IMG/VR virus record: IMGVR_UViG_3300029841_000009
Location: 4,544-68,543 of that record
Direction: 5' to 3' (one strand)
Length of the DNA: 64,000 nt
Source of the DNA: a virus
Lineage: Duplodnaviria; Heunggongvirae; Uroviricota; Caudoviricetes
The position numbers and the translations under genes are program-made. The notes beneath the pieces were generated by a model, which searched no databases, was not told where the DNA came from, and saw only the letters and a list, made by a program, of their open reading frames with translations. Within the stretch, counting starts at the first letter, position 1. The number at the start of each line of letters is the position of its first letter. Below are positions 5,087 through 64,000 of the stretch, piece by piece.

Positions 5087-5142
5087 AAGTTTCTATACTC
5101 CTGCAATAAAGGGGCCGAAGCCCCTTGTCTGATTCGCGAGGC

Positions 5143-5487: not shown

Positions 5488-5488
5488 C

Positions 5489-5926: not shown

Positions 5927-5977
5927 CTTCTTTCTCCATTAGTGGGTCTGTTACGACCCACAGGTTAATAACAGGCG

Positions 5978-6970
5978 TTACACCACGCGGGCTTCTGTTT
6001 CCAGAAGCGCATCAGTTTCACGGATTGGTACACCACGGAATGAAGTCCACCACTCGCCTTCAGTCTCTTTTACGCTGATAGCCAGAGATGTTTTCTCCAG
6101 AGATTGCAGATCAAGAGCCTGGCCTACAGTGCGGTTCATGTAGAACACCGGGCGGCCCATGCCACGGTTTGGAATGCGATGTAGTGCTTTAACCATCAAC
6201 TTCGCAATATTTGCGGCAGAGGATGGTTCTGAAATATTGCTGACATCGATGTTTGCAATGCGAACAACATAACGCCAGTCACGCAGAGCAAGTCCGTTAT
6301 CCCATTTGTAATGGGTGCGATAGCCTTCGTACTTGCCGCCATTAGCATCTTCCAGTGTCACCTGGCCTTTATCTTCCATCTGGATGCCAGCCTTCTGCCC
6401 TTTCGGGAAGATGCCATGCACGGTGTTTTCGCCCCACACCACTAACCAGATTGAGGTGTTATCTGTACCCGTGCCACCAGCATCAATGATGTTCTGAGCA
6501 TTACCCGCAGACAGGCTGGAATAGCGGGAGGACAGTCCCATAAACTGCTGAGGGTTAACGCTGGAATCACCATAAAACAGCGTCTGCGCCATCTGCTGAT
6601 TCATCGCTTCAATAAATGCGCGGTCTTCAGACAGGCGGAATTCGGCGGTATTGCCGTTCAGATCAGCCAGTGACTTATCGACTTCCGCATAGGTTTCCAG
6701 CATGCCAACGGAATCGGTTACCTGCACTGTGGTTGATTTGCTTGGCTGTACGCCATAGTTCAGCAAACGCCAGGTAGCTGAAGGTAAACCAGAACGAATG
6801 GTGGTTCGGTGTCCGGTAGGAAGGTTCCCTTCGACAAAAGGCATATCCTGAAGGATCGGGTTAGTTTGACCGAGAAGCTCGATAATCTTATCGACTTTCC
6901 CGTTTGGATCGACGCGCTTACCCCAGTCAGCCAGCGTTAGCGCAGTTAAGCCTTTAACAGCCATTGTCAT
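5978..6970 (-). CDS. Major capsid protein
   Basis: 330 aa, between scaffold and tail genes; size and position of T7 gp10-like capsid protein. Confidence 0.65.
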   Translation of the reverse strand: MTMAVKGLTALTLADWGKRVDPNGKVDKIIELLGQTNPILQDMPFVEGNLPTGHRTTIRSGLPSATWRLLNYGVQPSKSTTVQVTDSVGMLETYAEVDKSLADLNGNTAEFRLSEDRAFIEAMNQQMAQTLFYGDSSVNPQQFMGLSSRYSSLSAGNAQNIIDAGGTGTDNTSIWLVVWGENTVHGIFPKGQKAGIQMEDKGQVTLEDANGGKYEGYRTHYKWDNGLALRDWRYVVRIANIDVSNISEPSSAANIAKLMVKALHRIPNRGMGRPVFYMNRTVGQALDLQSLEKTSLAISVKETEGEWWTSFRGVPIRETDALLETEARVV

Positions 6971-6978
6971 TTCCTCTC

Positions 6979-7680
6979 TTATTTGCCATAGAGCACTTCG
7001 GCCGCACTACGCTGGCCTTCATTACCACCGGTGACCATGCCATCTTCAGACATCGCCTTTCCGATTTTCACGAACGTTTTGACCAGATCAGGGTGATTAC
7101 CCAGCCCGGTGGTGTTCAGATATTCTTTGAGTTCAGGTGTCCCGAACTGGTCAAGCGCACGCTGTGCGGCGCTAAGGTTAGAAATCAACTTGTCGCCACC
7201 GATTTCTTTGTCGGCTTTTACATCCGCTGCCCACTGCTCGGTTGTTTTCTGCCAGGCTTCTGCCTGGCGCTGCTGAACACCTGCCAGAATCTTCGGATAA
7301 GCATCAACCAGCTTTTGCGCTTGCTCGTTGGTCAGGTTTAGTTCTCGCGCCACCGGCTCGAATTCCTTCAACGCTTCTGTATCCAGCTCTACGCCTTCGG
7401 CAGCCTGAAACTCGTACTTTTCAGGCGCACCCTCTGGTTTATCGCCGTCCTTTTTTTCATCCTGCTTATCGTTTTCAGGCTTTTTGTCATCAGCAGGTTT
7501 ATCGCCATCAGCAACAGGTTGTGGCTTATCACCTTCCTGTTGTGATGGATCACCAACTGGAGCAGGGTTATCACCTGCAGGCGCTGACGGTTCTGACGCA
7601 GCCGGAGCTGCTCCACCATCGACTGGTTGCTCATTGCAAAGACGGCGATACAGCAAACGCTCAAATAAATTCATGATCAC
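6979..7680 (-). CDS. Scaffolding protein
   Basis: 233 aa, highly acidic with a Pro/Ala/Asp/Lys-rich low-complexity N-terminus and helical C-terminus; lies between portal and capsid. Confidence 0.6.
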   Translation of the reverse strand: MIMNLFERLLYRRLCNEQPVDGGAAPAASEPSAPAGDNPAPVGDPSQQEGDKPQPVADGDKPADDKKPENDKQDEKKDGDKPEGAPEKYEFQAAEGVELDTEALKEFEPVARELNLTNEQAQKLVDAYPKILAGVQQRQAEAWQKTTEQWAADVKADKEIGGDKLISNLSAAQRALDQFGTPELKEYLNTTGLGNHPDLVKTFVKIGKAMSEDGMVTGGNEGQRSAAEVLYGK

Positions 7681-7973
7681 TCCTGTTCACTGGCCTCTTT
7701 GGCCATCTTCAAATACTGTTCAGGGCAATGCGCCATAACGCGCTGAAACAGTTCCAGCGCCAGATTGCGTTGCCCCTCATTAAATGCCATTGCCATAGCG
7801 TCCATCGGTGAGATAGCGGAAAACACACGGCCTTTCTCCAGCACCGACCAGACAACGCGACGCCCCTGTTCACTGCTCATGACAAAGCGAATGTCATCAA
7901 TTTCACGCTGTGCCATGTCACGTTGCTTACGGGCGTTTTCTTCTTTCAGTTGATCATCTTCGTAATCTGTCAT
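7677..7973 (-). CDS. Hypothetical small protein
   Basis: 98-aa ORF between portal and scaffold, overlapping both. Confidence 0.35.
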   Translation of the reverse strand: MTDYEDDQLKEENARKQRDMAQREIDDIRFVMSSEQGRRVVWSVLEKGRVFSAISPMDAMAMAFNEGQRNLALELFQRVMAHCPEQYLKMAKEASEQE

Positions 7974-9649
7974 TGTGATTGCCCACCCTGACCACTAACT
8001 GCATTCGCCATAGCTGACAAAACACTCGGATCCGAAGTTTTAGCTTCGCTTAGCGTCTTGGCACCCTGTGCCGCCGCCATCCCCATCGCCATCATTTGTT
8101 GCTGCTGTTGTTGCTGTGCCCGTTGCTGGCGAGCCTGCTCAACCTGTTCCTGCGGAACAATGACGGTTGGAGACACTCCGGACATATCAGCGAATGCATC
8201 GATCGCCTGATCAACGTTGAGTTTGTCGAGAGCTTCTGGTTTCGCTTGCGCAAGTTGACCAATGAAGTTAACCGTGGACGCCAGACTGGACAGGCCGATA
8301 GACTTCTGCGCCTGAGCCATGACGGAAATGTATTCGACCTTCAGGGGCATACCTTCCATCACGTCTGGCGGTGGCGGCAGCATGTTTTTACGCACCATCA
8401 TCGAGAAAGAGCGGTCAATGAGAGGATTAAGACATTCGTCGTTCAGACGCTCCAGAACCGGCCCCAACATCAGAAGTTTTTCTTCTTTCATTTCGATCAC
8501 CGCTTCAACAGGCATCGAGCGGGTATTGATGTTCTGCAACATCATGAACAGATCGACAAAGTAGGCGCTGTTAATGATTTGACGAGTGTCCTGAATGTCT
8601 GCCACCAAATCTGCTGTACTGGGGTTAACCAGATAAGCAGGCCTGAAACCATCCTGACCAGTAATCTGATCGATATACGTGATGTCGCCAGGAAGAAGGG
8701 AGGCACGCTGATTCTTGAGGGAAGTCGGAGCAACCATCGGCGGATTGGTGGCTTTATCAATCAACTGCGACTTGCGCTTCTGGAGAAGCTGCAATGCCTT
8801 AACAGGTCCAAGCGCCAGCATACCCGGGCATGATGATCCATAAACATCTTCGCCGTTAACTTCCCAGCGCGGGGCCATAATTGGAAACTCATCGAATCCG
8901 GACTCACGCAACAACTTGTCGTTATCGCCACCAACCTCGTAATAAACCGATTTGAATGGCTTGTTCTTGCTATCCAGCTTCGATGTATCGCGGTCAATGT
9001 TCGGGTAAACCGAATGCATCACTTCAATCCACTTCTCGTAGGTTCCGCTTTCCCACATGCTTTTTACGGATTCGCTGACGTTATTTAGCCCGAACTCCTG
9101 AACAAGCTGACGAACAGTCATAGAGAACTTGCGAAAACAGGTGTCCACACTGCCACGAGGTGAGTTAGCCAGGTAGTAACTGCCTATCGGGAATGGCATT
9201 GTGCGAATGATGTCCTCGTCATCCTCCAGCACTGCCATTGCACCAGTGCTGTATGTGCCGAGGCTTCCGTATAACTGCGGCAGCGACTGATAGAGATTCG
9301 ACTTATTGAACATATCGTTCATGCGGTTCTGCACCGCCTCAAGCCACAACTTAACAGGGCCATAATCCATCATTTCAGGATCTGGCGTAGCCAGGCGAAA
9401 CCACGGACGCGCGGGGCTTGTGATGCCTGACATCATGCCGCTGGCGAGAGTGCGCGCCGCCATAGTCCCGGTCGAATCAATAATGCGTGTATTGCGTCGA
9501 TCGTTACGGTTGACCTCAGAAGTCAGAAAGCGGGAACCACGCGGGTTGATGTAATCACTCAACTCGCGCCAGTGCGGCTCGAACGACTGACGCTCGCTTT
9601 CAAGTTGTGCGAACTGTTTGTTCAATCGCTCTTTAGTTGTTTCCGCCAT
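7970..9649 (-). CDS. Portal / head-to-tail connector (T7 gp8-like)
   Basis: 559 aa; C-terminus QQQQQQMMAMGMAAAQGAKTLSEAKTSDPSVLSAMANAV resembles the Gln/Ala/Met-rich C-terminus of T7-type connectors. Confidence 0.75.
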   Translation of the reverse strand: MAETTKERLNKQFAQLESERQSFEPHWRELSDYINPRGSRFLTSEVNRNDRRNTRIIDSTGTMAARTLASGMMSGITSPARPWFRLATPDPEMMDYGPVKLWLEAVQNRMNDMFNKSNLYQSLPQLYGSLGTYSTGAMAVLEDDEDIIRTMPFPIGSYYLANSPRGSVDTCFRKFSMTVRQLVQEFGLNNVSESVKSMWESGTYEKWIEVMHSVYPNIDRDTSKLDSKNKPFKSVYYEVGGDNDKLLRESGFDEFPIMAPRWEVNGEDVYGSSCPGMLALGPVKALQLLQKRKSQLIDKATNPPMVAPTSLKNQRASLLPGDITYIDQITGQDGFRPAYLVNPSTADLVADIQDTRQIINSAYFVDLFMMLQNINTRSMPVEAVIEMKEEKLLMLGPVLERLNDECLNPLIDRSFSMMVRKNMLPPPPDVMEGMPLKVEYISVMAQAQKSIGLSSLASTVNFIGQLAQAKPEALDKLNVDQAIDAFADMSGVSPTVIVPQEQVEQARQQRAQQQQQQQMMAMGMAAAQGAKTLSEAKTSDPSVLSAMANAVSGQGGQSQ

Positions 9650-9663
9650 TTCAATGACTCCGG

Positions 9664-9870
9664 TTACTGACCAAGCAGCGTTTTACCGCTGGTATTAGCG
9701 GTTGATGTGTCGCCCTGAGAACCGGTAAGCAGCGTAGAACTACGACCAGCAGCAGCGCGACGGCGACGAGTTTCTTCGTCGCGGGCATCAACAACGGCGG
9801 CATCCTGCTCCTGTGGTGCTGCCTGAACTTCTGGTGTTGCAGGCACTGATGGTGAGCTACCCATGCACAT
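9664..9870 (-). CDS. Hypothetical small low-complexity protein
   Basis: 68-aa ORF ending 15 nt before the portal start; Ala/Thr/Gln-rich; coding status uncertain. Confidence 0.25.
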   Translation of the reverse strand: MCMGSSPSVPATPEVQAAPQEQDAAVVDARDEETRRRRAAAGRSSTLLTGSQGDTSTANTSGKTLLGQ

Positions 9871-10297
9871 ATCAATGACTCCGTACGCAATTAAATTATT
9901 ACCAATTTAACCACATATGATTTATTTATCGTAGATAGTTGACATTTAACGCACAAATTATTACCTTTCAGGTAACCAAAGAATTCATTCCGGTTACTAA
10001 CCTGACTGGCTTGTCGTTAAATTGAACAGGTGGAGTGAGCTTTTATTTTGAGCAGTACGGCGTATGGCACATGCGCCGATAGCGGTCTGGATACGTTTAA
10101 GGGGCACCCTCCCTGGCTGTGGCAAACGAACCAGGTAGCCGGAATGTGCAAGTCGAGCGGTTTTATTCCGCGCACGGGGATTCACCATCCCGGCGATTCG
10201 GTGTGACGCCTCGGAAGAGACGAGGGTACAACGATGAGAGCATTTATGGAGCCGCGACAAAGTGTGGCGCCTTAACAGGCTAAGTGCTCTCAGCGTT

Positions 10298-10374
10298 GTG
10301 GCATTAGCTCAGTCGGACAGAGCAACCGCCTTCTAAGCGGTTGGTCGCAGGTTCGAATCCTGCATGCCACGCCA
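10298..10374 (+). tRNA. tRNA-Arg (anticodon UCU)
   Basis: Cloverleaf read by hand: acceptor GTGGCAT/ATGCCAC, D-arm GCTC..GAGC, anticodon stem ACCGC/GCGGT with loop CTTCTAA, T-arm GCAGG-TTCGAAT-CCTGC, discriminator G, CCA. Confidence 0.8.
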
Positions 10375-10537
10375 GAATCACGCCTAAGGACCGTGATGCC
10401 AGAAGTTCCAGGTGCTTGGCGGTGATGGTTTCCCTTGAAGGACTATCACCACCCTTTTTACAGCAGGACGCCATTGCGATGACTTCATGCTGTAAACCAG
10501 TACAGCCACGGAAGGCATAACTCATTGCTTCCAGTTC

Positions 10538-10561
10538 GCCCGATTCGCCGGGCATTTTTTT
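10538..10561 (+). terminator. Rho-independent terminator downstream of the tRNA
   Basis: GCCCG-attcgc-CGGGC hairpin followed by ATTTTTTT. Confidence 0.5.
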
Positions 10562-10572
10562 AAGGTGAGATT

Positions 10573-10944
10573 ATGAACGACCAGCAAATCGAAAAAGAAA
10601 TCGTTGAGAAAGGCAAAACGGCACCGCGCGTTACGCCAGACCATATCGAAGGCATTATTGCTCAGGAGGCATATTTCACAGCAGAAGATGGTGCCTTTGG
10701 CAAAGCCATAAAAGAGAAACATACTGGCGGAGAGGTAAACTACCAGCCGCACGAATCACTTTCTCTGCTGACGTTCTGCGTCCTGGTGCTGCGCAACGGC
10801 TTCACCGTCACCGGAGAGAGCGCCTGTGCAAGCCCGGAAAACTTTGATGCGGAAATTGGTCGGAAGATTGCCCGGCAGAATGCTGTAAACAAAATCTGGA
10901 TGCTCGAAGGTTACTTGCTGAAGCAGAAGCTAAGCGAGCAATAA
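10573..10944 (+). CDS. Hypothetical moron protein (opposite orientation to the structural operon)
   Basis: 123-aa ORF with strong SD (AAGGTGAG) 4 nt upstream of the ATG; sits with the tRNA between TerL and portal on the opposite strand. Confidence 0.5.
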   Translation: MNDQQIEKEIVEKGKTAPRVTPDHIEGIIAQEAYFTAEDGAFGKAIKEKHTGGEVNYQPHESLSLLTFCVLVLRNGFTVTGESACASPENFDAEIGRKIARQNAVNKIWMLEGYLLKQKLSEQ

Positions 10945-11034
10945 CGCCGTGACATGTCACAATCAGCCAGCCTATGAGCTGGCTTTGTTTTATCCTCACC
11001 AGAGGATATCAGCAGCATTATCCCATCCAGCGGA

Positions 11035-12510
11035 TTAAGCATAGGGATCGTAATCTGTGATGGCTTTGCCTTGCTGGTTCTGCTGCCCGGGAATTCGCAG
11101 ACGCTTCGACACAGGGAACGCAAACGTCAGCAGTAGCGCATCGCCTTTACCAGGAGAACGCCCAAGTCGCTCTTTGATATCTTCCTTCGGTTCGATAACG
11201 ATTTTACCGTCCACGCGAACTTTGTACTCTGCCGTCGACAGGTCGTCCGCTGTTTCCTGGTCATCCAGCATGCCGCCGAGCCTCAGCCATGTCTTGCATG
11301 AGTTGAACATCTCCCCACGCTTGTTGAGCATCTGCGGGTCAGTAGACGCGCCACCGAACGGAACAAGTTGCCATGTACGACCCCAGCCGTCACCGATTGA
11401 CTTCAAACCGGTTCCGTAACCGAAGTCGATGAACACCGCGTCAGCCTGATACTGGTCTTCAAAGTCAGCGATACGCTTCGCCATAATCAGATCGTCGGTA
11501 GTCTTGTTGCCAGTCCACAGCACCTTACTGTGTAGCCCCTGCCGCAGGTATATCACCGCGTCATCAACGCCTGAATATGCCGGGTCAACACCGATTATCA
11601 CCGGAGCATGTGCAACCTGCGCAGCGGTTACCACCCGTTTCATTGCCTCGTCAGTAAGACCGGTAGGGATAAACTGCAATTCAGATGCATCAGGGAATAT
11701 GCCACGCACACGGATTTTAACGAAGTCGCTATCTTCCCCGTAGTCATCAACCCATTTCTGCAACTGCTGTTTGTTGGTGCCTTCCACCGTCCTGCTGTCA
11801 ATCTGCGCAGTTTTCCAGCGGTGTTTGTATTTGCGGAAACATTCACGGAAACGCCCGGTGTTACGTGTAGGGTTTCCGAAAGCCACCCAGATAATCTCAG
11901 TGTCTTCGTCCGTTAGCGCACCCTCGGCAACTTCCCACACCAGATCCGCAATGTTCGACGCTTCATCAAATACCACAATGATGCGTTTACGCTCGTTGTG
12001 TAGTCCGGCGAATGCCTCAGTGTTGTGCTCAGACCAGGGGATTGCGTCAGCTCGCCACCGCTTGTCGTGCCCAGGGTCATTGCTGTACATCGCGGTAGCG
12101 GTACAGGTAAACCAGTCTTTCGTGATAGCAAGGTTTGACCACTTGATAATTTCCGGCCAGGTCTTCGTTCGTAGCTGGTTGTCGGTGTTGGCGGTCACCA
12201 CGACCTTACAATCCTCGCAAGTGGACATGCCCCAGTTGATCAGCATTGAGATGAATGCGGATTTACCAATACCGTGACCAGAAGCACGTGCCAGCATAAG
12301 CGGCTGATATCGCGTCTCTGGATTCTGCAGGTGATCACGTATCTCTCGGAACGCATCAGCCTGCCACTGACGTGGGCCGGTGGCATGTGCCAGTTCAGTC
12401 CCCTCTTCCCCCCATGGGAACGCATAGAGGGCATAGCCAAGCGGATCGTGAGTGAACCCTGCAATATCCTCGATTAACTGCTCTTCAGGAGATAACGCTG
12501 TATCTGTCAC
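11035..12510 (-). CDS. Terminase large subunit
   Basis: 491 aa; Walker-A-like GHGIGKS near the N-terminus; directly downstream of TerS. Confidence 0.8.
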   Translation of the reverse strand: MTDTALSPEEQLIEDIAGFTHDPLGYALYAFPWGEEGTELAHATGPRQWQADAFREIRDHLQNPETRYQPLMLARASGHGIGKSAFISMLINWGMSTCEDCKVVVTANTDNQLRTKTWPEIIKWSNLAITKDWFTCTATAMYSNDPGHDKRWRADAIPWSEHNTEAFAGLHNERKRIIVVFDEASNIADLVWEVAEGALTDEDTEIIWVAFGNPTRNTGRFRECFRKYKHRWKTAQIDSRTVEGTNKQQLQKWVDDYGEDSDFVKIRVRGIFPDASELQFIPTGLTDEAMKRVVTAAQVAHAPVIIGVDPAYSGVDDAVIYLRQGLHSKVLWTGNKTTDDLIMAKRIADFEDQYQADAVFIDFGYGTGLKSIGDGWGRTWQLVPFGGASTDPQMLNKRGEMFNSCKTWLRLGGMLDDQETADDLSTAEYKVRVDGKIVIEPKEDIKERLGRSPGKGDALLLTFAFPVSKRLRIPGQQNQQGKAITDYDPYA

Positions 12511-13184
12511 TGATTGCCATCCTGACGTTCTTTCAGTCTCTTCCTGGCTGCCGCTATGCGATCAGCAATTGTCACATTCACATTAACATCCAGGCGTTCT
12601 TTGAATGCGTTGACGTCGACGTGCTTACCAATCAGTTCGAGGTTCTTCACCTTGTCAGGCCATTTAATTTTTTTGAGGATGCCAACCAGCTCTTTCTCGT
12701 CTCCACGGCCTTCGAACATGTCGGCCAGTTCGAAACCTGTCAGGTACTGCCGCCAGACCTTAGGCCATTCCGAGACCGGCTTGATGCTCATATCGTCGTT
12801 GAGAATGTCAATCACGTCCATCTGGTCGATCTCCACCAGGCGCATGAGAACGTAATCAGCACTGACGCGCATTCGTTTGTTGCGCTCCTCCATCAACTCG
12901 GCAATCCGTTTCTGAATGCGTTCATCGCGCATCATGACACTGGCTTTAACTGCCGCTGTATTTGGGGAGAATCCTGCATTAATCGCAGCCTGAGTCTGGT
13001 TTTCAGGCGTTTTGATGTATGACTGGCAATAAGCCTCCTGCATTGCTGTTAGTGGCTTAAATTGCGTTGATTTGCGTTTATAGGTTTTAGGTTCAGCAGG
13101 CATCATAACCACCGTGGTAATAGTTACCGTTGTGGTAATAGTACCATGCAAAATAAAGCCGCCATAGTTGGCGGCAGTATTCAA
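12507..13184 (-). CDS. Terminase small subunit (true start probably near 13106)
   Basis: Helical DNA-binding N-domain pattern (QEAYCQSYIKTPENQTQAAINAGFSPNTAAVKAS) of small terminases; the poly-Thr N-terminal extension in the ORF is probably untranslated. Confidence 0.65.
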   Translation of the reverse strand: MNTAANYGGFILHGTITTTVTITTVVMMPAEPKTYKRKSTQFKPLTAMQEAYCQSYIKTPENQTQAAINAGFSPNTAAVKASVMMRDERIQKRIAELMEERNKRMRVSADYVLMRLVEIDQMDVIDILNDDMSIKPVSEWPKVWRQYLTGFELADMFEGRGDEKELVGILKKIKWPDKVKNLELIGKHVDVNAFKERLDVNVNVTIADRIAAARKRLKERQDGNQ

Positions 13185-13224
13185 AACCCATCAAATTCAT
13201 CATGCATAACCCACTCGTGACATG

Positions 13225-13578
13225 TCACAATATTAATTTCGTTTCATGCCAGCCTTTAGTCACCCAGCATTGCGAGTCACCATTACACGGGCATGAATTC
13301 ACAGGAACTCTCTCGCCGCACTTACCGCAACGTTTTCTGCTGATCGATTTTATACGCCCGTGCACGCGCGCATCATCCTGGCGGATCAGTAACGCTATAT
13401 ACTCACCAAATTCGTAAGGCGCACGCCCGGGGCGACGTGTGGCACAGTTACGCTCCAGCATTTCAATTTCCTGAGCATCAAGCACAATCTCCAGCTTACG
13501 CACACCAGATGCAGCTTGTCTGGCTCTCTGAGCGGCTTTGCGCTCTGCTGCTGCCTTAGCCATTACCATATCCACCAA
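13225..13578 (-). CDS. Hypothetical protein with Cys-rich C-terminus
   Basis: 117-aa ORF upstream of TerS; CGKCG...CPC motif suggests zinc binding. Confidence 0.35.
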   Translation of the reverse strand: MVDMVMAKAAAERKAAQRARQAASGVRKLEIVLDAQEIEMLERNCATRRPGRAPYEFGEYIALLIRQDDARVHGRIKSISRKRCGKCGERVPVNSCPCNGDSQCWVTKGWHETKLIL

Positions 13579-13648
13579 ACTTCACCAGACATGATTCTCG
13601 CAATCACTATCATCACCAAAGTGATAATCACAACTTTAACTGGCGGCA

Positions 13649-14026
13649 TCATTCACCATCCTGCTCCGGCGGTTCTGGCAGCGGCATCCAGTGGGTTACC
13701 TCCTTGAGATACAGGTCTTCGCCACCACCGTCATCCCAAGTGGGCTTGCCATCATTAAACCAGTCGCCATATACGCCGACCTGAGTGTTGGGGATGCTTG
13801 GTGGGTAGTTGTTTTTAAAGTCAGCAGCTAACACATAGCATTGTCGCTCTCCCATTTCTGGCATTCGTTCACTACAGCTTATCCAACTCTCCGGAGTTAC
13901 CGGAGAGTTGCCAGCCTCATACGCCACACGCATCCAGTGCATAAGCGTTTCAGTGCTCACACAGCCGCAATCAACATCAATTTTGCCGTGCTGCTGTTCC
14001 AGCCATTGCTCAAGCGTAGTGCTCAT
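13649..14026 (-). CDS. DUF551-like protein
   Basis: C-terminal THWMPLPEPPE motif typical of lambdoid DUF551 proteins. Confidence 0.55.
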   Translation of the reverse strand: MSTTLEQWLEQQHGKIDVDCGCVSTETLMHWMRVAYEAGNSPVTPESWISCSERMPEMGERQCYVLAADFKNNYPPSIPNTQVGVYGDWFNDGKPTWDDGGGEDLYLKEVTHWMPLPEPPEQDGE

Positions 14027-14256
14027 TTTTCATCCCCCCGATGATGCCATCTGCATCGCATCTCATAACACCCCCACTCAACACGAAAACCACATAGCCT
14101 GTGCAGATCCACCCACTTCTGCGCCATCGCTGGCGACGTGTAAATCACAGTGAATGCGTTATCTTCGTTGTCGATTTGCGTAAACGTCACTTTGTACAAC
14201 AACCCACCGTCGACACATGCTGTGTTCAACGATTTATTGCTAATACCCTCAATCAT
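14023..14256 (-). CDS. Hypothetical protein
   Basis: 77-aa ORF coupled to neighbours. Confidence 0.35.
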   Translation of the reverse strand: MIEGISNKSLNTACVDGGLLYKVTFTQIDNEDNAFTVIYTSPAMAQKWVDLHRLCGFRVEWGCYEMRCRWHHRGDEK

Positions 14257-14900
14257 TCGTACTCACCCCCCGCTGTTTTGAATTTGATCTCCGCTGCCTG
14301 CAATGCGTGTTCGACGTCGAAGCGGTCCAGCCATCCACCAAAGTGGTGCGGCATCATTACCACCCGCTCACCGCTATTTATTGGGTGGCCCATACGGGGT
14401 TCGTAGCCGTCCGGTAACTCGACTTCCCGCGCTTCCAGTTCTGCTATGCGCTTCTCTGATGCTTCAAGTAACGCCTGCTTATCGCGTAGCGCTTCTTCCA
14501 GTTCAGCAACATGGCACTCACTATCAATAAGGTTGTTCTCTGCGGCTTCCAGCTCAACACGCAGCTTCCCTACCGTTAGCGCAATATCCTCGTTCTCTTG
14601 GTCGCGGCGTTTGATGTATTGCTGGTTTCTTTCCCGTTCATCCAACAATGCCAGCACGGTAACTGGATTGGCTGCGGCGATGAATTCAGCATTGGCCTGC
14701 TGTTCCATTTGGAAATCTTCATCGAAACCGCTTTCAGGATGCGCTCCTTCAATTCTGCAAATGGGAAGATATCCAACAACTTCACGATGAATTAGCGCAT
14801 CACCAGCATCAAATCTCTCCTCTCCATATTCTAGCGACCACACACCACACGTTGCTTTTTCTGCCTTAGCACGCAGTGCCTGGTAATTAATTTCGCTCAC
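14253..14900 (-). CDS. Ead/Ea22-like protein
   Basis: N-terminus MSEINYQALRAKAEKA and coiled-coil core LLDERERNQQYIKRRDQENEDIALTVGKLRVELEAAE, as in lambdoid Ead/Ea22 proteins. Confidence 0.55.
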   Translation of the reverse strand: MSEINYQALRAKAEKATCGVWSLEYGEERFDAGDALIHREVVGYLPICRIEGAHPESGFDEDFQMEQQANAEFIAAANPVTVLALLDERERNQQYIKRRDQENEDIALTVGKLRVELEAAENNLIDSECHVAELEEALRDKQALLEASEKRIAELEAREVELPDGYEPRMGHPINSGERVVMMPHHFGGWLDRFDVEHALQAAEIKFKTAGGEYE

Positions 14901-15137: not shown

Positions 15138-15764
15138 TCACTGGTTGCCTCCTTTGCGAAGCTGTTCCGCCCATTCTTCAAGGGATTTCTCCGCATATTC
15201 ACCGGACAGGCCATCAATCGGATGCGCTTCATTAACCAACTCTTCTTTCGCTGACAAAATCATGCGTGTAACGTCGAAAACTTCACGCAAAGACTTATTG
15301 ATAAATCCGTGATTGAACGCAGCAGCAAGACGGCTGGCGGTATAGTTAATCCCCTCGTTGCGTGCTTCCGCACGAATTTCAGCCAGAAAAGCATCGGTAG
15401 CTGGAGTTTCGCTGTGGTGTAGGGCATCATTGATAATCATTGCAGCAACACCAGCCTGCCCTGCATCCGTGACCGACACATGCTCAAGAGTTACGGCCAT
15501 TGCGTGTTTCAGTCCGTCGTTCTCCACCACCAGCGCAGCGAGATTAGTCTCATACTCCGCAATTCGGCACATAGCATCGATATTTGTGTCCTCCAGCCGC
15601 TTAATTTCATCCAGTAGCGCCAGCACAACCTGCGGTGTGACCTTCATACGAAACGCGAGCAATTTTTGCGGCGTTGCCACGACTTTTATTGCTTCTGCTG
15701 CCTCACGCAGTGCCTGGTAATTAATTTCGCTCACTGGTTGCCTCCTGAATACGCTTAAACTCAA
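15138..15764 (-). CDS. Ead/Ea22-like protein (paralog)
   Basis: Contains SEINYQALREAAEA; its 3' ~250 bp is near-identical to 63750-64000. Confidence 0.5.
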   Translation of the reverse strand: MSLSVFRRQPVSEINYQALREAAEAIKVVATPQKLLAFRMKVTPQVVLALLDEIKRLEDTNIDAMCRIAEYETNLAALVVENDGLKHAMAVTLEHVSVTDAGQAGVAAMIINDALHHSETPATDAFLAEIRAEARNEGINYTASRLAAAFNHGFINKSLREVFDVTRMILSAKEELVNEAHPIDGLSGEYAEKSLEEWAEQLRKGGNQ

Positions 15765-17145: not shown

Positions 17146-18213
17146 TCAGGCTTTCAATAGCGATTCTTTCAGATATCGGGCATCAGCCAGGGCATTTGGA
17201 GTAATCTTGCGAACCCATGCATTACGGGTTGGACTCCACTTAAAGGCGCGTGATTTAAGCAGCGAACGAATGTTTGCCTCTGGTTTGCCAGGGAAATAAA
17301 ACAGGATGCGGTTATCCTCTGGATCTATCTCCATAGAAAAGTCGTCGTATTCTTCGCGCTGTGCTCCTGTTACAGACTTGACCGATTCAAGCTCCTTAAT
17401 ACGGCTCTGTAGTCGTTTGATCTCGGCGTTATTGTTGCTCAGTGCGTATGAAGGGAATCCGATGTGCCCACAGAAATCTCCGGCCAGTAACTCTTTGGCT
17501 TCGCTTTCTGTAAACCTGAGATCGATTAATGCAGAAAGCTGCTGTAATTGGTCTTTTTTGTATTTGCGAATGGCCTTATTTGCGGCCTTCATTTTGACGT
17601 GTGACTTCATGCAGCCTTGCAGCTTACGAAGCAACTTAAATAGCGCATCAGGATCATCAGACGAAATTCCATTACGACCAACACCTGCGGCTTTGCTCTC
17701 GTAGTGTGATGCTTTACTTTCGCATTCAACAAACGCTTTTCTTAATAACGCATCAGCTTTAGACAAACGGCGGCGATGGCCTTTCGCGCTATAATGGTCA
17801 ACTAAAATCGGCTGGCCTAACGGGATCACATCCAACAGGTCATGCGCTCGCTTATGCGCTACCGCACCTTCTTTTCTGGCTTTTTCTGCACGAGCAATAT
17901 ATCGGGCAAGACGCGCGTTCTGGCGTTCCTGATAGGTGTTTACGTAATCATCTCCGCGCTGCTGCTGTTCAAGCCATGCTTTGCGCAGATCTTCTGTTAC
18001 GTCCACCAGCTCCGCAGGGATACAACCAGTTTGGGCTTCATAAGAGTAACCATCCTCATAGATACGCCCATCATCTTCAACAAAGAAAAAGGTTTCGTGC
18101 TCATCGCTTTTGACCATACGACCATTAACATGGCGTAATAGGTAGCCAGTATCAGTGCTTAACAGGCTGTTAGGGTTGTTGATCCAGTCAGAAATAATTA
18201 CTTGTTTATTCAT
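17146..18213 (-). CDS. DUF3560-like protein
   Basis: 355 aa; central IPLGQPILVDHYSAKGHRRRLSKAD segment typical of DUF3560. Confidence 0.5.
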   Translation of the reverse strand: MNKQVIISDWINNPNSLLSTDTGYLLRHVNGRMVKSDEHETFFFVEDDGRIYEDGYSYEAQTGCIPAELVDVTEDLRKAWLEQQQRGDDYVNTYQERQNARLARYIARAEKARKEGAVAHKRAHDLLDVIPLGQPILVDHYSAKGHRRRLSKADALLRKAFVECESKASHYESKAAGVGRNGISSDDPDALFKLLRKLQGCMKSHVKMKAANKAIRKYKKDQLQQLSALIDLRFTESEAKELLAGDFCGHIGFPSYALSNNNAEIKRLQSRIKELESVKSVTGAQREEYDDFSMEIDPEDNRILFYFPGKPEANIRSLLKSRAFKWSPTRNAWVRKITPNALADARYLKESLLKA

Positions 18214-18335
18214 CAGATTTCTCCGGTTTAACCAGGGCGGGTATCGCTCGGTTTCGGGTATAACCTTAGGAAATTTTTTCCCACCTGTAAAGCACTTTTT
18301 ATATAAATCTATAATTATATATTTATAGATTTTCG
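18214..18335 (-). promoter_or_regulatory. Conserved promoter-leader cassette, copy 1
   Basis: AT-rich iteron, then -35 TTTACA, 17 bp, -10 TAAGGT, about 50-nt leader with GGAG SD; near-identical copies at 28215-28333 and 58794-58911. Confidence 0.5.
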
Positions 18336-22036: not shown

Positions 22037-22054
22037 AGCGGGCTAACGCCCGCT
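22037..22054 (+). terminator. Terminator-like hairpin
   Basis: AGCGGGC-taac-GCCCGCT. Confidence 0.4.
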
Positions 22055-22055
22055 T

Positions 22056-22160
22056 ATATGATTATAGATTTATATAATTATATAAAACGCTTTTCATCCG
22101 CCAAAAAGTTGGTTATGCTTACCTCGTTCTATAAATATAGATTTATAGAATTATATAACC
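22056..22160. repeat. AT-rich iterons flanking the parA promoter (centromere/operator candidate)
   Basis: TATGATTATAGATTTATATAATTATATAA (22056-22088) and CTATAAATATAGATTTATAGAATTATATAA (22129-22160). Confidence 0.55.
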
Positions 22161-22166
22161 AAACAC

Positions 22167-22835
22167 ATGGAGTCTCGACAAATGACTATCTCTGTAGGTA
22201 TTTTCAACGGAAAAGGCGGCGTAACCAAATCAACAATTGCCCGTGCTTTAGCAGTTGCTTATGCAAAGGCTGGCTGGAATGTATGCCTGATCGATATGGA
22301 TGTGCTTAACGGAACGGTAACGCGTTGGGTACAACGCAGAATGGCCAACAATATCGAACCAGCAATCGCGGCGCAGCCGTGCGGCACACCATCACAAGTC
22401 CAGAAAATCATCGAATCAGAAGTATACGACCTGGTTATCGTCGATGGCGGTGCCTACGCATCTGAATCAGTACCGAAGCTCTCTGAATTTCTGGATATGG
22501 TTATTTTGCCAACCAGATTCTCTACCGATGACCTGGAAACCACCGTTAACACAGCTCACGGCATCGTTAAAAAGGGTGTACCAATCAAGAAAATTTGCAT
22601 GGTGTTTTCCGGCGCGGCTGAAAACGAAGCTGACTATATTGAAGCCCAAGAGTACCTGGCTAATACGCCATACTTTGTTGTCGATAAGTACATTCCCCAC
22701 AAGCCAGCTCTGAGCAAAGCTCAGGATAAGGGCTTAAGCCTTATTGAGTGCTCATACGTTGCGCCACGCAAAAAGGCAGACGATGTTATCCAGGGGATTA
22801 TCAATCAGCTTGAGGCTCTGACTACTGCCGCGTAA
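22167..22835 (+). CDS. parA: ParA/Soj-family partition ATPase (start possibly 22182)
   Basis: Deviant Walker A GIFNGKGGVTKST; about 220 aa, typical small ParA; GGAG SD 9 nt upstream of the second ATG. Confidence 0.8.
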   Translation: MESRQMTISVGIFNGKGGVTKSTIARALAVAYAKAGWNVCLIDMDVLNGTVTRWVQRRMANNIEPAIAAQPCGTPSQVQKIIESEVYDLVIVDGGAYASESVPKLSEFLDMVILPTRFSTDDLETTVNTAHGIVKKGVPIKKICMVFSGAAENEADYIEAQEYLANTPYFVVDKYIPHKPALSKAQDKGLSLIECSYVAPRKKADDVIQGIINQLEALTTAA

Positions 22836-22872
22836 TATATAATTATAGTTTTATAGATTTATATAAAAGGGG
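22835..22872. repeat. AT-rich iteron between parA and the RHH gene
   Basis: TAATATATAATTATAGTTTTATAGATTTATATAAAAGG. Confidence 0.5.
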
Positions 22873-27833: not shown

Positions 27834-28214
27834 TTACTTAACGAGGAATAAAAATGGTTTATCGTTCGGCGGTGTACTCGGGGCTGGCTCGCTTTTGCTC
27901 ATACGATCAGTGTACCAGGCCAGCTCCTTGTCAAAGTAAGCCTGATTAAAATAGGCCATGAATGTGGTTTCAAATCCATAACGACCGCTAATACGCAGCA
28001 TCTGATTGCCGTTCTCTGTTTCCAGATATACCTGGGCACGTTCCTGATTCTCCTTCAGCCAAGTTAAAGCCTCGTCGCACGAGGACACACGATACTCATC
28101 ATCGTAGCCGTCATCGATGCGGCTTGAAGAAGAACGGCAAATCACGCCAACAGAACCAGCCAGGATAGTTTGAATTTTAAGGAAAGCGTTTTTGCGGATT
28201 TTAATCATGCTCAT
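27834..28214 (-). CDS. Hypothetical protein driven by cassette copy 2
   Basis: 126-aa ORF directly downstream of the conserved promoter-leader cassette. Confidence 0.45.
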   Translation of the reverse strand: MSMIKIRKNAFLKIQTILAGSVGVICRSSSSRIDDGYDDEYRVSSCDEALTWLKENQERAQVYLETENGNQMLRISGRYGFETTFMAYFNQAYFDKELAWYTDRMSKSEPAPSTPPNDKPFLFLVK

Positions 28215-28333
28215 CGGGTTATCTCCGGTTTAACCAGGGCGGGTATCGCTCGGTTTCGGGTATAACCATAGGAAATTTTTTCCCACCTGTAAAGCACTTT
28301 TATATAAATCTATAATTATATAATTCTATGAGC
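28215..28333 (-). promoter_or_regulatory. Conserved promoter-leader cassette, copy 2
   Basis: Near-identical to 58794-58911; -35 TTTACA, 17 bp, -10 TATGGT, leader, GGAG SD, ATG. Confidence 0.5.
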
Positions 28334-28376: not shown

Positions 28377-28676
28377 TCAGATGTTAAACGCTATTCGTTT
28401 TCCTGTGGGAAGCTCAACATCCAGGCTTAATTTGCCTCCCATAGCTTCAACGTAACGCTTTAATGTCGCCAGCTTTAAATCATTTCCGCGCTGCTCCAGC
28501 TTTGTTACTGCTGGCTGGCTTATACCCATCGCCTCAGCAACCTGCTTTTGTGATAACTGGAGTTCTTCACGCATCATCTGCAAGCCGACCTCAAGAATCA
28601 TCTCATCTGCCATTTCTTTAATTCGCGCCTGGCTTTCCGGTAAACGGCTGGCAATCACCTCATCTAATGTTCTCAT
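28377..28676 (-). CDS. higA: HigA-like antitoxin (HTH-XRE)
   Basis: 99 aa with HTH (LSQKQVAEAMGISQPAVTKLEQ); immediately downstream of and overlapping the toxin gene. Confidence 0.65.
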   Translation of the reverse strand: MRTLDEVIASRLPESQARIKEMADEMILEVGLQMMREELQLSQKQVAEAMGISQPAVTKLEQRGNDLKLATLKRYVEAMGGKLSLDVELPTGKRIAFNI

Positions 28677-29029
28677 TACTTGCTCTCCAGTGTGTTCAGA
28701 TGTGCTGCAAACTCATCCTCAGCTATACGCACCAGTTTTTTATAAAACCGCTTATCGTTACTTTTGTCTCCTGCACAAAGAACGATAGCCCGGCGAATCG
28801 GATCGAACGCATAAAAGGCTCTTATCGGACGGCCAGAAAACTGAACGCGAAGCTCTTTCATATTTTTGTACCGAGAACCTTTTACGGTATCGGCATATGG
28901 CCTGGGTAACTCAGGTCCGTAAACCTGTAGCTTTTTCAAATCAGCCAAAACCTTTTCCTGAAGAGCGTCTTCTTGCTCATTTAGCCAGCCGTCAAATCGC
29001 TGGCTAAAAAGTACCGTCCACATGCTCAA
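28676..29029 (-). CDS. higB: HigB-like toxin (RelE/ParE superfamily)
   Basis: 117 aa; toxin-first order; resembles the HigB / Gp49-like killer family. Confidence 0.65.
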   Translation of the reverse strand: MSMWTVLFSQRFDGWLNEQEDALQEKVLADLKKLQVYGPELPRPYADTVKGSRYKNMKELRVQFSGRPIRAFYAFDPIRRAIVLCAGDKSNDKRFYKKLVRIAEDEFAAHLNTLESK

Positions 29030-57153: not shown

Positions 57154-57564
57154 TTACGCAGGGATCAAACAGATGTGGCCGTTATTTACCTCAATACGGG
57201 AATATTCCGGCTTACCATCCACGATTCCGGTAATGACAAGTTCGCCATCAGGCGACCATTCTTCTTTGTCGTCTTCAAGTACCGCGCCTTCTGGCAAATC
57301 AATACAGGCAAAAACAGGGCAGCCAGGATGACGTTTATCCTCCATCGCAATCAGCATCGACTCACCGAACCACTCTGTGGTAGCACGGCCATCAGCCGCC
57401 TGATAGTGAATCAGATACTGGTTTTCGCCATTTGCATACTGAGCACGGGCTTGAACTTCTCCCCACTCTTCACTGATACGCATTGTTACCAGTTGGGATA
57501 ATTCAAACTTAAACGGAACAGACTCTGCACCAATGGCAATCGGTTTATCTTCTTTCTTTTCCAT
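57154..57564 (-). CDS. Hypothetical protein (start at MEKKEDKP)
   Basis: ORF-track start at 57633 lies upstream of a terminator; internal ATG at 57564 has AGGTGA SD. Confidence 0.4.
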   Translation of the reverse strand: MEKKEDKPIAIGAESVPFKFELSQLVTMRISEEWGEVQARAQYANGENQYLIHYQAADGRATTEWFGESMLIAMEDKRHPGCPVFACIDLPEGAVLEDDKEEWSPDGELVITGIVDGKPEYSRIEVNNGHICLIPA

Positions 57565-57581
57565 AACATCACCTGAAAATA

Positions 57582-57606
57582 AAAAGCCCCGCGACACCGC
57601 GAGGCT
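57582..57606 (-). terminator. Rho-independent terminator after the small membrane-peptide pair
   Basis: GCCTCGCG-gtgt-CGCGGGGC hairpin with T5 on the minus strand. Confidence 0.5.
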
Positions 57607-57607
57607 G

Positions 57608-57766
57608 TAAGAGTTACTTTCGATATAAATCAAGGCGCATTTGCTCCCGCTTAAGCCGAAAAGCCCTCTGCGCCACTAAGATGCGCCACAGGACACCAGC
57701 GATAACCACCAGCGAGATACAAAAACACACGGCCACAACCATCAGAAAAATGCCAACACCATTCAT
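57608..57766 (-). CDS. Small hydrophobic peptide (52 aa), toxin-like
   Basis: Manual translation: MNGVGIFLMVVAVCFCISLVVIAGVLWRILVAQRAFRLKREQMRLDLYRK; ATG overlaps the upstream stop (ATGA); below the ORF-track size cutoff. Confidence 0.4.
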
Positions 57767-57975
57767 GAAACTATCCATTCTTCAATGAATATCTCCAGTA
57801 ATGTCAAGAGATACGCCGTCCCCAGCGCGGTTCCTACCGATATAGCTAAGACAAACCTCAAAGATAACGAGGTGTCTTTCGCTTTTCTCCAGACGTAAGC
57901 GCCAGCTAGAAATACCAACAAATCTCTTATTGGAAGCGGAAACCAGAACAAATCACTCGGCATAAGCACGATCAT
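57763..57975 (-). CDS. Small membrane protein (70 aa, two hydrophobic segments)
   Basis: LLVFLAGAYVW and FVLAISVGTALGTAYLLTLL segments; coupled to the 52-aa peptide. Confidence 0.4.
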   Translation of the reverse strand: MIVLMPSDLFWFPLPIRDLLVFLAGAYVWRKAKDTSLSLRFVLAISVGTALGTAYLLTLLEIFIEEWIVS

Positions 57976-58252
57976 CTTCCGCTGCTGATTTACATGCCGC
58001 AGTTACTGATATATTGATAACCGGTGCGCTAATCGTGATGGACGACGCTGTCGGTTGACGCGATATAACTGAACGATGGCTATCAATGAAGTCCACAATC
58101 TCATTCAGGCACTCTTTAGCTGCCTCATCGTGACTTTTTCCGTATGCTTCATGGAGGACTTTCATCCTCATCATTGCTCCGTCACATATAGTCGAAAGCG
58201 CGTAAAGCACATCACTAACCGCCATTTCTTTTTTGGTGCTTGTCGAAGGCAT
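57953..58252 (-). CDS. Hypothetical protein
   Basis: 99-aa ORF. Confidence 0.35.
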   Translation of the reverse strand: MPSTSTKKEMAVSDVLYALSTICDGAMMRMKVLHEAYGKSHDEAAKECLNEIVDFIDSHRSVISRQPTASSITISAPVINISVTAACKSAAEDDRAYAE

Positions 58253-58326
58253 CCCATGTTCTCCTTTGTCTGGATGTAAAAAAGCCCCGGCAATTGCCGA
58301 GGCTCGTTGTTCGTTATCGTTACGGT

Positions 58327-58527: not shown

Positions 58528-58793
58528 TCATCATCTCCTGCCGCACATACAACCTCACAAAAAAAATCAGCAGAATGTTTCTCCTTGAACGAATGACGCT
58601 CAAAACCGCACTCAATATCAGGCGCAAAAACATCCACCACATACGGTCTTTCAGAATGTTTGTTTTCCCAACGATAAACCGTAGTGACGTTGAAATGTTT
58701 TAACGCTTCACGGAACTCAACGCTGCCAGTCAGGTTTTTTGAGGTCAGGTATTGCAGGAGGTTTTTTACTACTTCACGGTCTTGTACTTTCAT
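58524..58793 (-). CDS. Hypothetical protein driven by cassette copy 3
   Basis: 89-aa ORF immediately downstream of the conserved promoter-leader cassette. Confidence 0.45.
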   Translation of the reverse strand: MKVQDREVVKNLLQYLTSKNLTGSVEFREALKHFNVTTVYRWENKHSERPYVVDVFAPDIECGFERHSFKEKHSADFFCEVVCAAGDDE

Positions 58794-58911
58794 CGGGTTA
58801 TCTCCGGTTTAACCAGGGCGGGTATCGCTCGGTTTCGGGTATAACCATAGGAAATTTTTTCCCACCTGTAAAGCACTTTTATATAAATCTATAATTATAT
58901 AATTCTATACC
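58794..58911 (-). promoter_or_regulatory. Conserved promoter-leader cassette, copy 3
   Basis: -35 TTTACA (58872-58867), 17 bp, -10 TATGGT (58849-58844), leader with GGAG SD; AT-rich iteron 58877-58911. Confidence 0.5.
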
Positions 58912-63737: not shown

Positions 63738-64000
63738 AACTGAACTCCTTTGCGAATCTGTTCCGCCCATTCTTCAAGGGATTTCTCCGCATATTCACCG
63801 GACAGGCCATCAATCGGGTACGGTTCATTAGCCAACTCTTCTTTCGCTGACAGAATCATGCGCGTAACGTCGAAAACTTCACGCAAAGACTTATTGATAA
63901 ATCCGTGATTGAACGCAGCAGCAAGACGGCTGGCGGTATAGTTAATCCCCTCGTTGCGTGCTTCCGCACGAATTTCAGCCAGAAAAGCATCGGTAGCTGG
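63734..64000 (-). CDS. Ead/Ea22-like protein, C-terminal part (gene runs off the right edge)
   Basis: Near-identical at DNA level to the 3' end of 15138-15764; stop TGA at 63734-63736. Confidence 0.5.
   Translation of the reverse strand, partial: PATDAFLAEIRAEARNEGINYTASRLAAAFNHGFINKSLREVFDVTRMILSAKEELANEPYPIDGLSGEYAEKSLEEWAEQIRKGVQL

Follow-up and report, generated by a model that had tools for sequence, protein, structure and literature searches.

A terminator-bracketed three-gene cassette with two small predicted membrane proteins in an Escherichia coli phage-plasmid

Introduction

A 64,000-nucleotide (nt) stretch of tailed-phage DNA (IMG/VR record IMGVR_UViG_3300029841_000009, positions 4,544 to 68,543; referred to as the window) carries on its minus strand, at 57582–57975, two short overlapping reading frames that end at a terminator. 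The window from ~14.5 kb to 64 kb corresponds to a ~48-kb phage-plasmid, which is of the myovirus type and non-mobilisable. A copy of this element in Escherichia coli ATCC 25922 is deposited as NZ_CP009073, and the element, an E. coli/Salmonella phage-plasmid, has also been isolated as the Yersinia phages vB_YpM_39, vB_YpM_41 and vB_YpM_44. The locus raises the question of whether the two frames are genes at all, to which transcriptional and translational unit they belong and what kind of role such small membrane proteins could have. The original prediction had described a translationally coupled pair of membrane peptides, resembling either Hok/Ldr-like toxins or an accessory lysis or exclusion factor.

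The two frames, here named ORF1 and ORF2, are the distal part of a three-gene cassette. The unit consists of terminator T1, a gene for a soluble protein (gene X), ORF1, which is optional, ORF2 and terminator T2. According to the best reading, ORF1 and ORF2 are lineage-restricted small inner-membrane proteins, as predicted from their sequences, in a co-directional minus-strand array. That X, ORF1 and ORF2 form a coupled accessory module is probable. The fuller statement, namely that the cassette from T1 to T2 is produced by terminator read-through and serves as an accessory module of the inner membrane, is on balance favoured; this judgement covers the statement as a whole and leaves the specific role aside.

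Results

Reading frames of ORF1 and ORF2

ORF1 (57763–57963, minus strand) encodes a predicted two-helix membrane protein of 66 amino acids (aa), or of 70 aa if translation starts at 57975. The 70-aa frame of the original prediction is present and, judged by its conservation, is a real gene with a shorter likely product. The first four codons of the 70-aa version fall in a mosaic block of the upstream gene and are swapped in other members of the family, so that the ATG at 57963 is the conserved start. In other variants ORF1 begins with a GTG. Hydropathy and charge analysis reveals two moderately hydrophobic helices around a basic loop (WRKAKDTSLSLR) and an acidic C-terminal end with a net charge of -3. 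The helices are rich in Gly, Ala, Ser and Thr. Of the shuffles of the 213-nt ORF1 stretch, 0.6 % contain an ATG-initiated frame of 66 codons or more. ORF1 is unannotated in every RefSeq or GenBank record inspected. Inside ORF1, in the part most conserved at the DNA level, a weak hairpin with a T-rich tract (ACCTCGTTATCTTTGAGGTTTGTCTT) is located at 57855–57873. It is also detected in contigs L012 and L014 and may correspond to mere coding conservation.

ORF2 (57614–57778, minus strand) encodes a predicted single-pass membrane peptide of 54 aa, or of 50 aa from the ATG at 57766 (57614–57766). As originally described, this second frame ends at 57614 and shares an ATGA with ORF1 when read from 57766, but its length from there is 50 aa and not 52 aa. 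The proposed single transmembrane (TM) helix with a basic tail is well supported by hydropathy and charge: an acidic N-terminal end is followed by one strong TM helix (KD15 3.2) and a tail with a charge of +6. The 50-aa form corresponds to the PGAP model WP_001523048.1 and is annotated in many records; in several others ORF2 is unannotated.

The overlap between ORF1 and ORF2 measures 16 nt from the ATG at 57778 and 4 nt (ATGA, 57763–57766) from the ATG at 57766. The E. coli lineage has these two in-frame Met starts, four codons apart. Of the two, the one at 57766 (ATGA) is restricted to this lineage, whereas the start common to the distant relatives is the ATG inside an AATGGAT motif, at 57778. 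Because this ATG is embedded in conserved ORF1 codons (AA-TGG-AT) in three lineages, 57778 is indicated as the ancestral start and 54 aa as the ancestral length. A still longer ORF2 frame (P0021, 92 aa; open upstream in some variants) was rejected, as the extension is not conserved in the distant lineages.

Several independent frameshift alleles of ORF2 (L008, which is phage vB_YpM_41, as well as P0002 and P0018–P0020) have lost the basic tail and kept the TM helix. For one of these, P0020 (25 contigs), the protein sequence suggests that 13 nt were duplicated in tandem at a direct repeat, GCTGGTG. Several tail-truncated alleles come from raw-read assemblies and some may be assembly errors. Among the 60 listed complete E. 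coli genomes, no tail-loss allele is present.

Conservation of the cassette

A BLAST search with the region matches 72 complete E. coli genomes, where 212 of 215 matching places are on plasmids of ~47–50 kb, and three Yersinia phage genomes (vB_YpM_39, vB_YpM_41 and vB_YpM_44). The core of the cassette is found in 69 of 5,426 complete E. coli genomes (~1.3 %). In PLSDB, the cassette block is present in the same plasmids as the backbone (58/58). Of 60 listed complete E. coli genomes, 56 contain the 322-bp core without insertions or deletions. Three further listed genomes share a pattern with L013 (match from query position 36–39), which is consistent with a 30-nt in-frame deletion in ORF1. The short terminator region beside the core, on the other hand, does carry 1-nt indels. 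One variant contains a 30-nt in-frame deletion within ORF1. In another, ORF1 stops three codons early, so that its stop again shares an ATGA with the upstream ATG of ORF2.

When 1.8 billion representative proteins were searched exhaustively with a profile, two distant homologues of ORF1 were obtained, P0026 (67 aa, E = 7.5e-12) and P0027 (72 aa, E = 6.7e-8). The corresponding contigs, L016 and L017, each also encode an ORF2 homologue (50 or 55 aa) that overlaps the 3' end of the ORF1 homologue. ORF2 shares 29–40 % identity with its homologues in L016, L017 and L025 (pairwise E values of 2e-6, 4e-10 and 6e-7, respectively). Taken over the Salmonella and metagenomic relatives, homologues of ORF1 and ORF2 are 30–45 % identical, with overlap and gene order kept. 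The IMG/VR contig L026 likewise carries the pair, as does S. Weltevreden plasmid 3, in which both genes are unannotated. Conservation of the pair in related elements is hereby confirmed.

The order of genes in the relatives is the same as in the window: X, ORF1, ORF2, a terminator, a phrog_1935-like gene, ParB/Srx and ParB-methyltransferase. Between lineages, the ParB-like genes align at 76–79 % on the DNA level, whereas the DNA of the cassette cannot be aligned. The conservation of the cassette is therefore at the protein level. Between the distant lineages, the ratio of non-synonymous to synonymous polymorphism (pN/pS) is ~0.5, without correction.

ORF1 is absent from the IMG/VR contig L025 (2602–3141) and from the S. 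salamae plasmid CP053324 (L053, 3245–4168), and ORF2 begins there 0–16 nt after X. As ORF1 is missing in two lineages with ORF2 directly following X, X and ORF2 constitute the core and ORF1 is optional. Among the GTDB species representatives there is no relative of ORF2, and with ParB/Srx as an anchor only far-off bacterial ParB-like matches are obtained. ORF1 and ORF2 are almost certainly genuine, translated membrane-protein genes, and their conservation in the distant relatives is considered decisive for this assignment.

Gene X and the chained arrangement

The first gene of the cassette, gene X (57953–58252, minus strand), encodes a 99-aa acidic soluble protein that belongs to phrog_8319. 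Its Shine-Dalgarno (SD) sequence, GGAG, is located 8 nt before the ATG and is the only good one in the cassette of the window; ORF1 and ORF2 have none. Homologues of X are present at the same position in all relatives. The protein is modular and varies in length from 99 to 323 aa (123–323 aa for the homologues). It comprises a conserved N-terminal helical hairpin of ~60 aa (predicted in a single-sequence model with a predicted local distance difference test (pLDDT) score of ~80) and optional middle modules, and most versions terminate in an ITI(S/N)AP-type motif. Such modular homologues are seen in L012, L016, L017, L025 and L053. No match to X is found in Pfam or the PDB, and a Foldseek search of the model against BFVD gives none at E <= 0.001. 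As a query against IMG/VR, X finds nothing. A lone metagenomic relative was obtained with X as query (L055, 2050–3090). In this contig, as judged by eye, X is split by an IS110-type transposase-like gene on the opposite strand.

The stop of X and the start of ORF1 overlap by 11 nt in the window and in L017 and by ATGA in L016. In E. coli variants with an X of 151 aa, the GTG of ORF1 follows 2–3 nt after the stop of X, and a GGAAGGA ~7 nt before this GTG could serve as SD. Stops and starts of X, ORF1 and ORF2 overlap or abut in every lineage found. These tight overlaps are consistent with translational coupling. To this extent the coupled pair of the original prediction stands, but a third gene and a terminator on either side belong to the unit as well.

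Terminators and promoters

The cassette is insulated by a terminator on either side. T2 (57577–57606, minus strand) consists of a stem at 57585–57606 and a T-run and follows 7 nt after the stop codon of ORF2. It forms a GC-rich hairpin of 9 bp; together with its flanks the free energy is -20.1 kcal/mol (z = -4.5), a stability reached by none of 200 shuffles. The strong terminator claimed right after the second gene is thus borne out. A terminator is found at the same position in L016, L017, L025 and L026, with a hairpin of different sequence.

T1 (58282–58305, minus strand) has a stem of 10 bp with 7 GC pairs, followed by a T-run, and closes the preceding pair of genes for proteins of 89 aa and 66 aa. 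Its free energy is -18.8 kcal/mol (z = -4.5). T1 is located directly upstream of the SD of gene X, which takes up the ~30-nt spacer between T1 and the ATG of X. After each of the two terminators, SD and ATG of the next gene follow within ~25 nt; behind T2 this is the gene for a 136-aa protein. The T1 hairpin, the T-run and the SD of X (window 58230–58310) are nearly base-for-base the same in four lineages whose flanking coding DNA does not align. This conservation suggests a regulatory role of T1 beyond plain termination.

Promoter scans of the window and the relatives detect no promoter-like site between T1 and T2 on either strand. A hidden promoter at T1 (TTTACA directly behind T1, followed by CATGGG or TATGGG at a distance of 15–16 nt) was considered and rejected: the second hexamer is without the invariant T6, and the transcript would start only after the SD. 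The candidate promoter closest to the cassette is found at 58872–58844, upstream of the 89-aa gene. It is part of a candidate operon promoter and leader (58790–58908, minus strand) with a -35 element TTTACA, a spacer of 17 nt and a -10 element TATGGT, followed by a leader of ~50 nt, an SD and the ATG of the 89-aa gene. This promoter would also feed the cassette.

Self-BLAST and alignment reveal that this 119-bp unit is present in three near-identical copies on the minus strand (58790–58908, 28211–28329 and 18209–18327). Each copy contains an AT-rich iteron block (ATAGAATTATATAATTATAGATTTATAT), TTTACA-17-TATGGT, the identical leader of ~50 nt, an SD and an ATG. The genes that follow are different (89 aa, 126 aa and DUF3560). 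In relatives of the Salmonella lineage, the unit is 86–88 % conserved at the same place. Related AT-rich iterons are observed at 22054–22160 and 22836–22869, flanking a ParA gene (22167–22835). As iterons also flank ParA, those of the 119-bp units look like putative binding sites of a partition protein that are dispersed at promoters, reminiscent of the sopC sites of N15 or the KorB sites of RK2.

On the plus strand, an extended -10 promoter-like site (CTGATA-18-TG-GATAAT) is located at 57473–57502, antisense towards the start of the 136-aa gene, T2 and ORF2. It recurs in L012. Promoter-like matches in the region are fewer than expected from shuffles, so this site is probably a chance match. 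Candidates for an antiterminator or a late activator were sought with a PHROG scan, in which all of them are of 'unknown function'.

Variability within the cassette

Within the E. coli lineage, the three cassette genes have pN/pS values of 0.88 (X), 0.45 (ORF1) and 1.18 (ORF2), compared with 0.09, 0.15, 0.04, 0.25 and 0.33 for five neighbouring genes. X, ORF1 and ORF2 are the fastest-evolving set of proteins of the region, several-fold above their neighbours. The estimate ranges from 0.45 to 0.47 for ORF1 and from ~1.2 to 1.4 for ORF2. Sorted by codon position, the variable columns of ORF1 are distributed as [9, 7, 16], with half of them at position 3, and those of ORF2 as [9, 1, 5]. Substitutions in ORF2 avoid codon position 2; they thus exchange one hydrophobic residue for another and hydrophobicity is maintained. 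The basic juxtamembrane tail of ORF2 (WRILVAQRAFR.KREQ, also written WRILV.Q.AFR.KREQ) is invariant within the lineage, as is the segment of ORF1 that comprises helix 1 and the loop.

Recombination breakpoints in the E. coli lineage are located exactly at the start of ORF1 and within the last ~9 codons of ORF2. As a result, ORF1 is preceded by an X of either 99 or 151 aa, and the cassette has three alternative 3' ends, only one of which contains T2. The GC content of the cassette (0.46) is close to that of the plasmid (0.45).

Family and RNA searches

Pfam searches with ORF1 and ORF2 at E <= 1 return no toxin, holin or YebO family, only DUF6773 and Vpu at chance level. Neither protein has a relative in NCBIfam, PADLOC, PHROG or the PDB, where matches such as Vpu, CcmD and FtsL are chance TM matches. 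PHROGs and the PDB were also scanned with the distant homologues and with alignments that include them. In Rfam (E <= 10, 56.8–60.1 kb), only a tRNA and noise are found, and no family of toxin mRNAs or antitoxin small RNAs. Literature searches found no published study of the two genes.

An antisense RNA on the plus strand, as would belong to a Hok/Ldr-like toxin, finds no support. There is no Rfam match to such an RNA, and no promoter-like site is detected on the plus strand within 57582–57975 or in the counterparts of L017 and L026, although a weak or atypical promoter might escape the scan.

Genomic neighbourhood

The minus-strand array begins with two genes of holin families (Phage_holin_8 and Phage_holin_3_7), a GH108 endolysin and two overlapping reading frames, which are presumably, as read by eye, an i-/o-spanin pair. 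It continues with tRNA-Met, an MT-A70 methyltransferase, the promoter-like repeat, the 89-aa and 66-aa genes and T1. Gene X (99 aa), ORF1, ORF2 and T2 come next. Downstream of T2 are the 136-aa gene (phrog_1935), ParB/Srx, ParB-methyltransferase and, further on, the large terminase. The lysis cassette is co-directional with ORF1 and ORF2, which are located ~2.3 kb downstream of it; the distance to the endolysin is ~2.5 kb.

Three further observations concern the window as a whole. Positions 1–14500, with a tRNA-Arg at 10298–10374, are outside the 48-kb plasmid backbone found in PLSDB. The last 256 bp (63745–64000) are 97 % identical to 15149–15404, so the window may derive from a larger or cointegrated element. 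At 28377–29029 (minus strand), adjoining one copy of the 119-bp repeat on its upstream side, inspection of the translations by eye suggests a putative HigB/HigA-like pair (a Gp49-type toxin and a helix-turn-helix antitoxin).

Discussion

Proposed expression and topology of the module

The following scheme is drawn from the sequence. Transcripts from the promoter at 58844–58872 would reach the cassette solely by read-through of T1, either by leakage or by antitermination during lytic development. Ribosomes loaded at the SD of X would then reinitiate on ORF1 and subsequently on ORF2, which would lead to fixed ratios of the three products. ORF2 would be inserted with its N-terminus outside and its C-terminus inside, placing the basic juxtamembrane tail in the cytoplasm. 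ORF1 would form a hairpin in the inner membrane with a basic cytoplasmic loop. Both proposed topologies agree with hydropathy and charge distribution. ORF1 and ORF2 may together hold the acidic soluble X at the cytoplasmic face of the inner membrane.

The module is accessory rather than essential, in keeping with its fast evolution, with the absence of ORF1 from L025 and L053 and with phage vB_YpM_41, where ORF2 is truncated by a frameshift due to a 1-nt deletion; vB_YpM_44 has the same match that is one base short. Most likely, its role is of the kind of membrane-level conflict or timing, that is superinfection exclusion, in which incoming DNA is blocked, or modulation of lysis. The order of preference is exclusion or another membrane conflict, followed by lysis tuning, defence and a tether for the downstream ParB-like enzymes. 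An exclusion-type role specifically is a tentative assignment. The accessory lysis or exclusion factor that had been put forward originally is among these candidate roles.

Several observations weigh against the favoured reading. The two helices of ORF1 are supported by hydropathy, but helix 1 is weakly hydrophobic and the AlphaFold (AF2) model, built from an alignment of four sequences, is all-helical with a pLDDT of 63, which is low confidence; the two-helix protein of the original prediction holds to that degree. T2 is absent from two recombinant 3' variants of the E. coli lineage and hence is not obligatory. The high pN/pS could result from relaxed constraint on TM helices instead of conflict. 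The interaction of X with ORF1 and ORF2 is a guess from the coupling and the opposite charges. None of the searches above yields a family, structure or literature link that would give ORF1 or ORF2 a function. Temperate phages usually express their exclusion factors in the repressed prophage state, each from a dedicated promoter (PMC3594210), and the promoter scans detect no such promoter in the cassette.

Comparison with known exclusion systems

HK97 gp15 is an inner-membrane protein that blocks DNA entry (PMC3594210). The moron-encoded exclusion proteins of the gp15/YebO type resemble the proteins described here in being small, dispensable inner-membrane proteins of a temperate Enterobacteriaceae phage, with a terminator after the gene set. 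The general architecture of an N-terminal TM helix and a charged cytoplasmic tail is also similar. Unlike these systems, the cassette has no match to YebO or another family (E <= 1) and no promoter of its own, has the GC content of the backbone, is present in all members and consists of three coupled genes including one for a soluble protein. A moron in the strict sense of Juhala and Hendrix has its own promoter, a deviant GC content and a presence/absence pattern among relatives (PMC3594210). The cassette shares with morons the terminator T2; no promoter is found between T1 and the start of X or inside the cassette, and both the GC content (0.46 versus 0.45) and the presence in 58/58 plasmids differ from the moron pattern.

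A second architectural analogy is offered by RexA and RexB of phage lambda, where a soluble protein is encoded beside a membrane protein in a temperate phage. RexA is a soluble sensor and RexB a membrane effector, and both are expressed from the prophage together with the repressor. There is no homology, and the cassette, in contrast to rex, is located behind a terminator in an array with lytic direction. It is conceivable, if unlikely, that X, ORF1 and ORF2 constitute an undescribed three-component membrane conflict system of phage-plasmids with the modular, fast-evolving X as a cytoplasmic adaptor or sensor docked on two tiny inner-membrane proteins. Such a system would be made only if T1 is overridden, and it would exclude rival phages or plasmids or, in response to a specific trigger, kill the cell.

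Alternative roles

A part in lysis is an unlikely alternative, though it survives best. ORF1 with two TM helices and ORF2 with one TM helix and a basic tail would be an additional pair of the holin/antiholin kind, or regulators of holins, that tune the timing of lysis. Size and number of helices of ORF1 resemble class II holins, the two in-frame Met starts of ORF2 in the E. coli lineage resemble those of pinholin and antiholin (S21 68/71), and the genes are co-directional with the lysis cassette a short distance upstream. However, neither ORF1 and ORF2 nor their distant homologues match a holin in Pfam or PHROG. The lysis cassette already appears complete with two holin-family genes, the endolysin and the putative spanin pair. 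The endolysin is not adjacent; tRNA, methyltransferase, promoter, two genes and T1 set the pair apart, and its synteny is kept with X and the ParB-like genes and not with the endolysin. Holins typically have a basic C-terminal tail, unlike ORF1 with its acidic C-terminus.

A defence or abortive infection system, in which the modular X would sense an invading phage and ORF1 and ORF2 would act as membrane-disrupting effectors, is improbable to a slightly higher degree. It would account for the modular, length-variable X with conserved ends, for the highest pN/pS values of the region and for recombination breakpoints exactly at borders inside the cassette. Small TM effectors are also common in defence systems. 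Against this, PADLOC gives no match, the cassette is a fixed part of the core (58/58) and not the variable cargo of a hotspot, and its GC content is that of the backbone. With no promoter of its own and a conserved terminator in front, expression of the cassette in the carried state is doubtful, which counts against defence.

Still less credit is given to a membrane tether by which X, ORF1 and ORF2 would anchor the ParB/Srx nuclease-like protein, the ParB-methyltransferase, or replication or packaging to the inner membrane. The order X, (ORF1), ORF2, phrog_1935, ParB/Srx, ParB-methyltransferase upstream of the terminase is kept in every lineage found, the membrane proteins appear to be translationally coupled to a soluble partner and their basic segments, predicted to be cytoplasmic, are conserved. 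This argument is one of synteny and has no domain evidence beside it. ORF2 carries a frameshift in deposited phage genomes, the proteins of the cassette evolve far faster than the ParB-like genes, and T2 divides the cassette from them.

Decaying or non-functional reading frames that survive by linkage only are very improbable. As decay would predict, ORF2 and X have a pN/pS near 1 within the E. coli lineage, ORF1 is lost in two lineages, and some alleles are frameshifted or truncated. Nevertheless, open frames and the overlap of the pair are kept across lineages with unalignable DNA, and the protein similarity is significant. In addition, indels are lacking in 56/60 listed complete genomes whereas the adjoining terminator region has 1-nt indels, and no variation is seen in the tail of ORF2 or in helix 1 and the loop of ORF1.

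The Hok/Ldr-like toxin of the original prediction can practically be dismissed: as a type I toxin-antitoxin system, with ORF2 as a membrane-depolarising toxin, ORF1 as a mok-like leader, an antisense RNA on the plus strand and post-segregational killing, it would fit a plasmid-borne hydrophobic peptide of ~50 aa with a single TM helix whose start is overlapped by an upstream frame, with a terminator at its 3' end, and truncated-tail alleles that recur in raw assemblies and two phage records, as possible for a toxic product, but no Hok/Gef, Ldr or other toxin family, no toxin mRNA or antitoxin small RNA in Rfam, no plus-strand promoter-like site within the pair in the window or in L017 and L026 and no promoter of its own support it. 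In hok/mok/sok and ldr/rdl terms, the hok mRNA is stand-alone and its mok-like leader spans most of the toxin gene. ORF1, in contrast, is a conserved membrane protein that overlaps ORF2 by only 4–28 nt and is dispensable in two lineages, and the pair is chained to the soluble X in a polycistronic phage operon. The charge layout of Hok is the reverse of that of ORF2 with its acidic N-terminal end and basic C-terminal tail. Furthermore, the element already has the putative HigB/HigA-like pair.

Implications

The annotation of this family of phage-plasmids is corrected by the addition of ORF1, which is missing from all inspected records, and of ORF2, which is missing from several. A conserved three-gene cassette is defined that includes two orphan families of small membrane proteins. 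As it stands, the finding adds one more uncharacterised pair of phage membrane peptides of an ordinary kind and has no bearing on a long-standing question. Carriers of the phage-plasmid make up ~1.3 % of complete E. coli genomes and include the reference strain ATCC 25922, so that the cassette is readily accessible to experiments. If a role in exclusion, lysis timing or defence is true, the cassette would represent a new small-protein mechanism and an example of terminator-gated, reinitiation-coupled expression.

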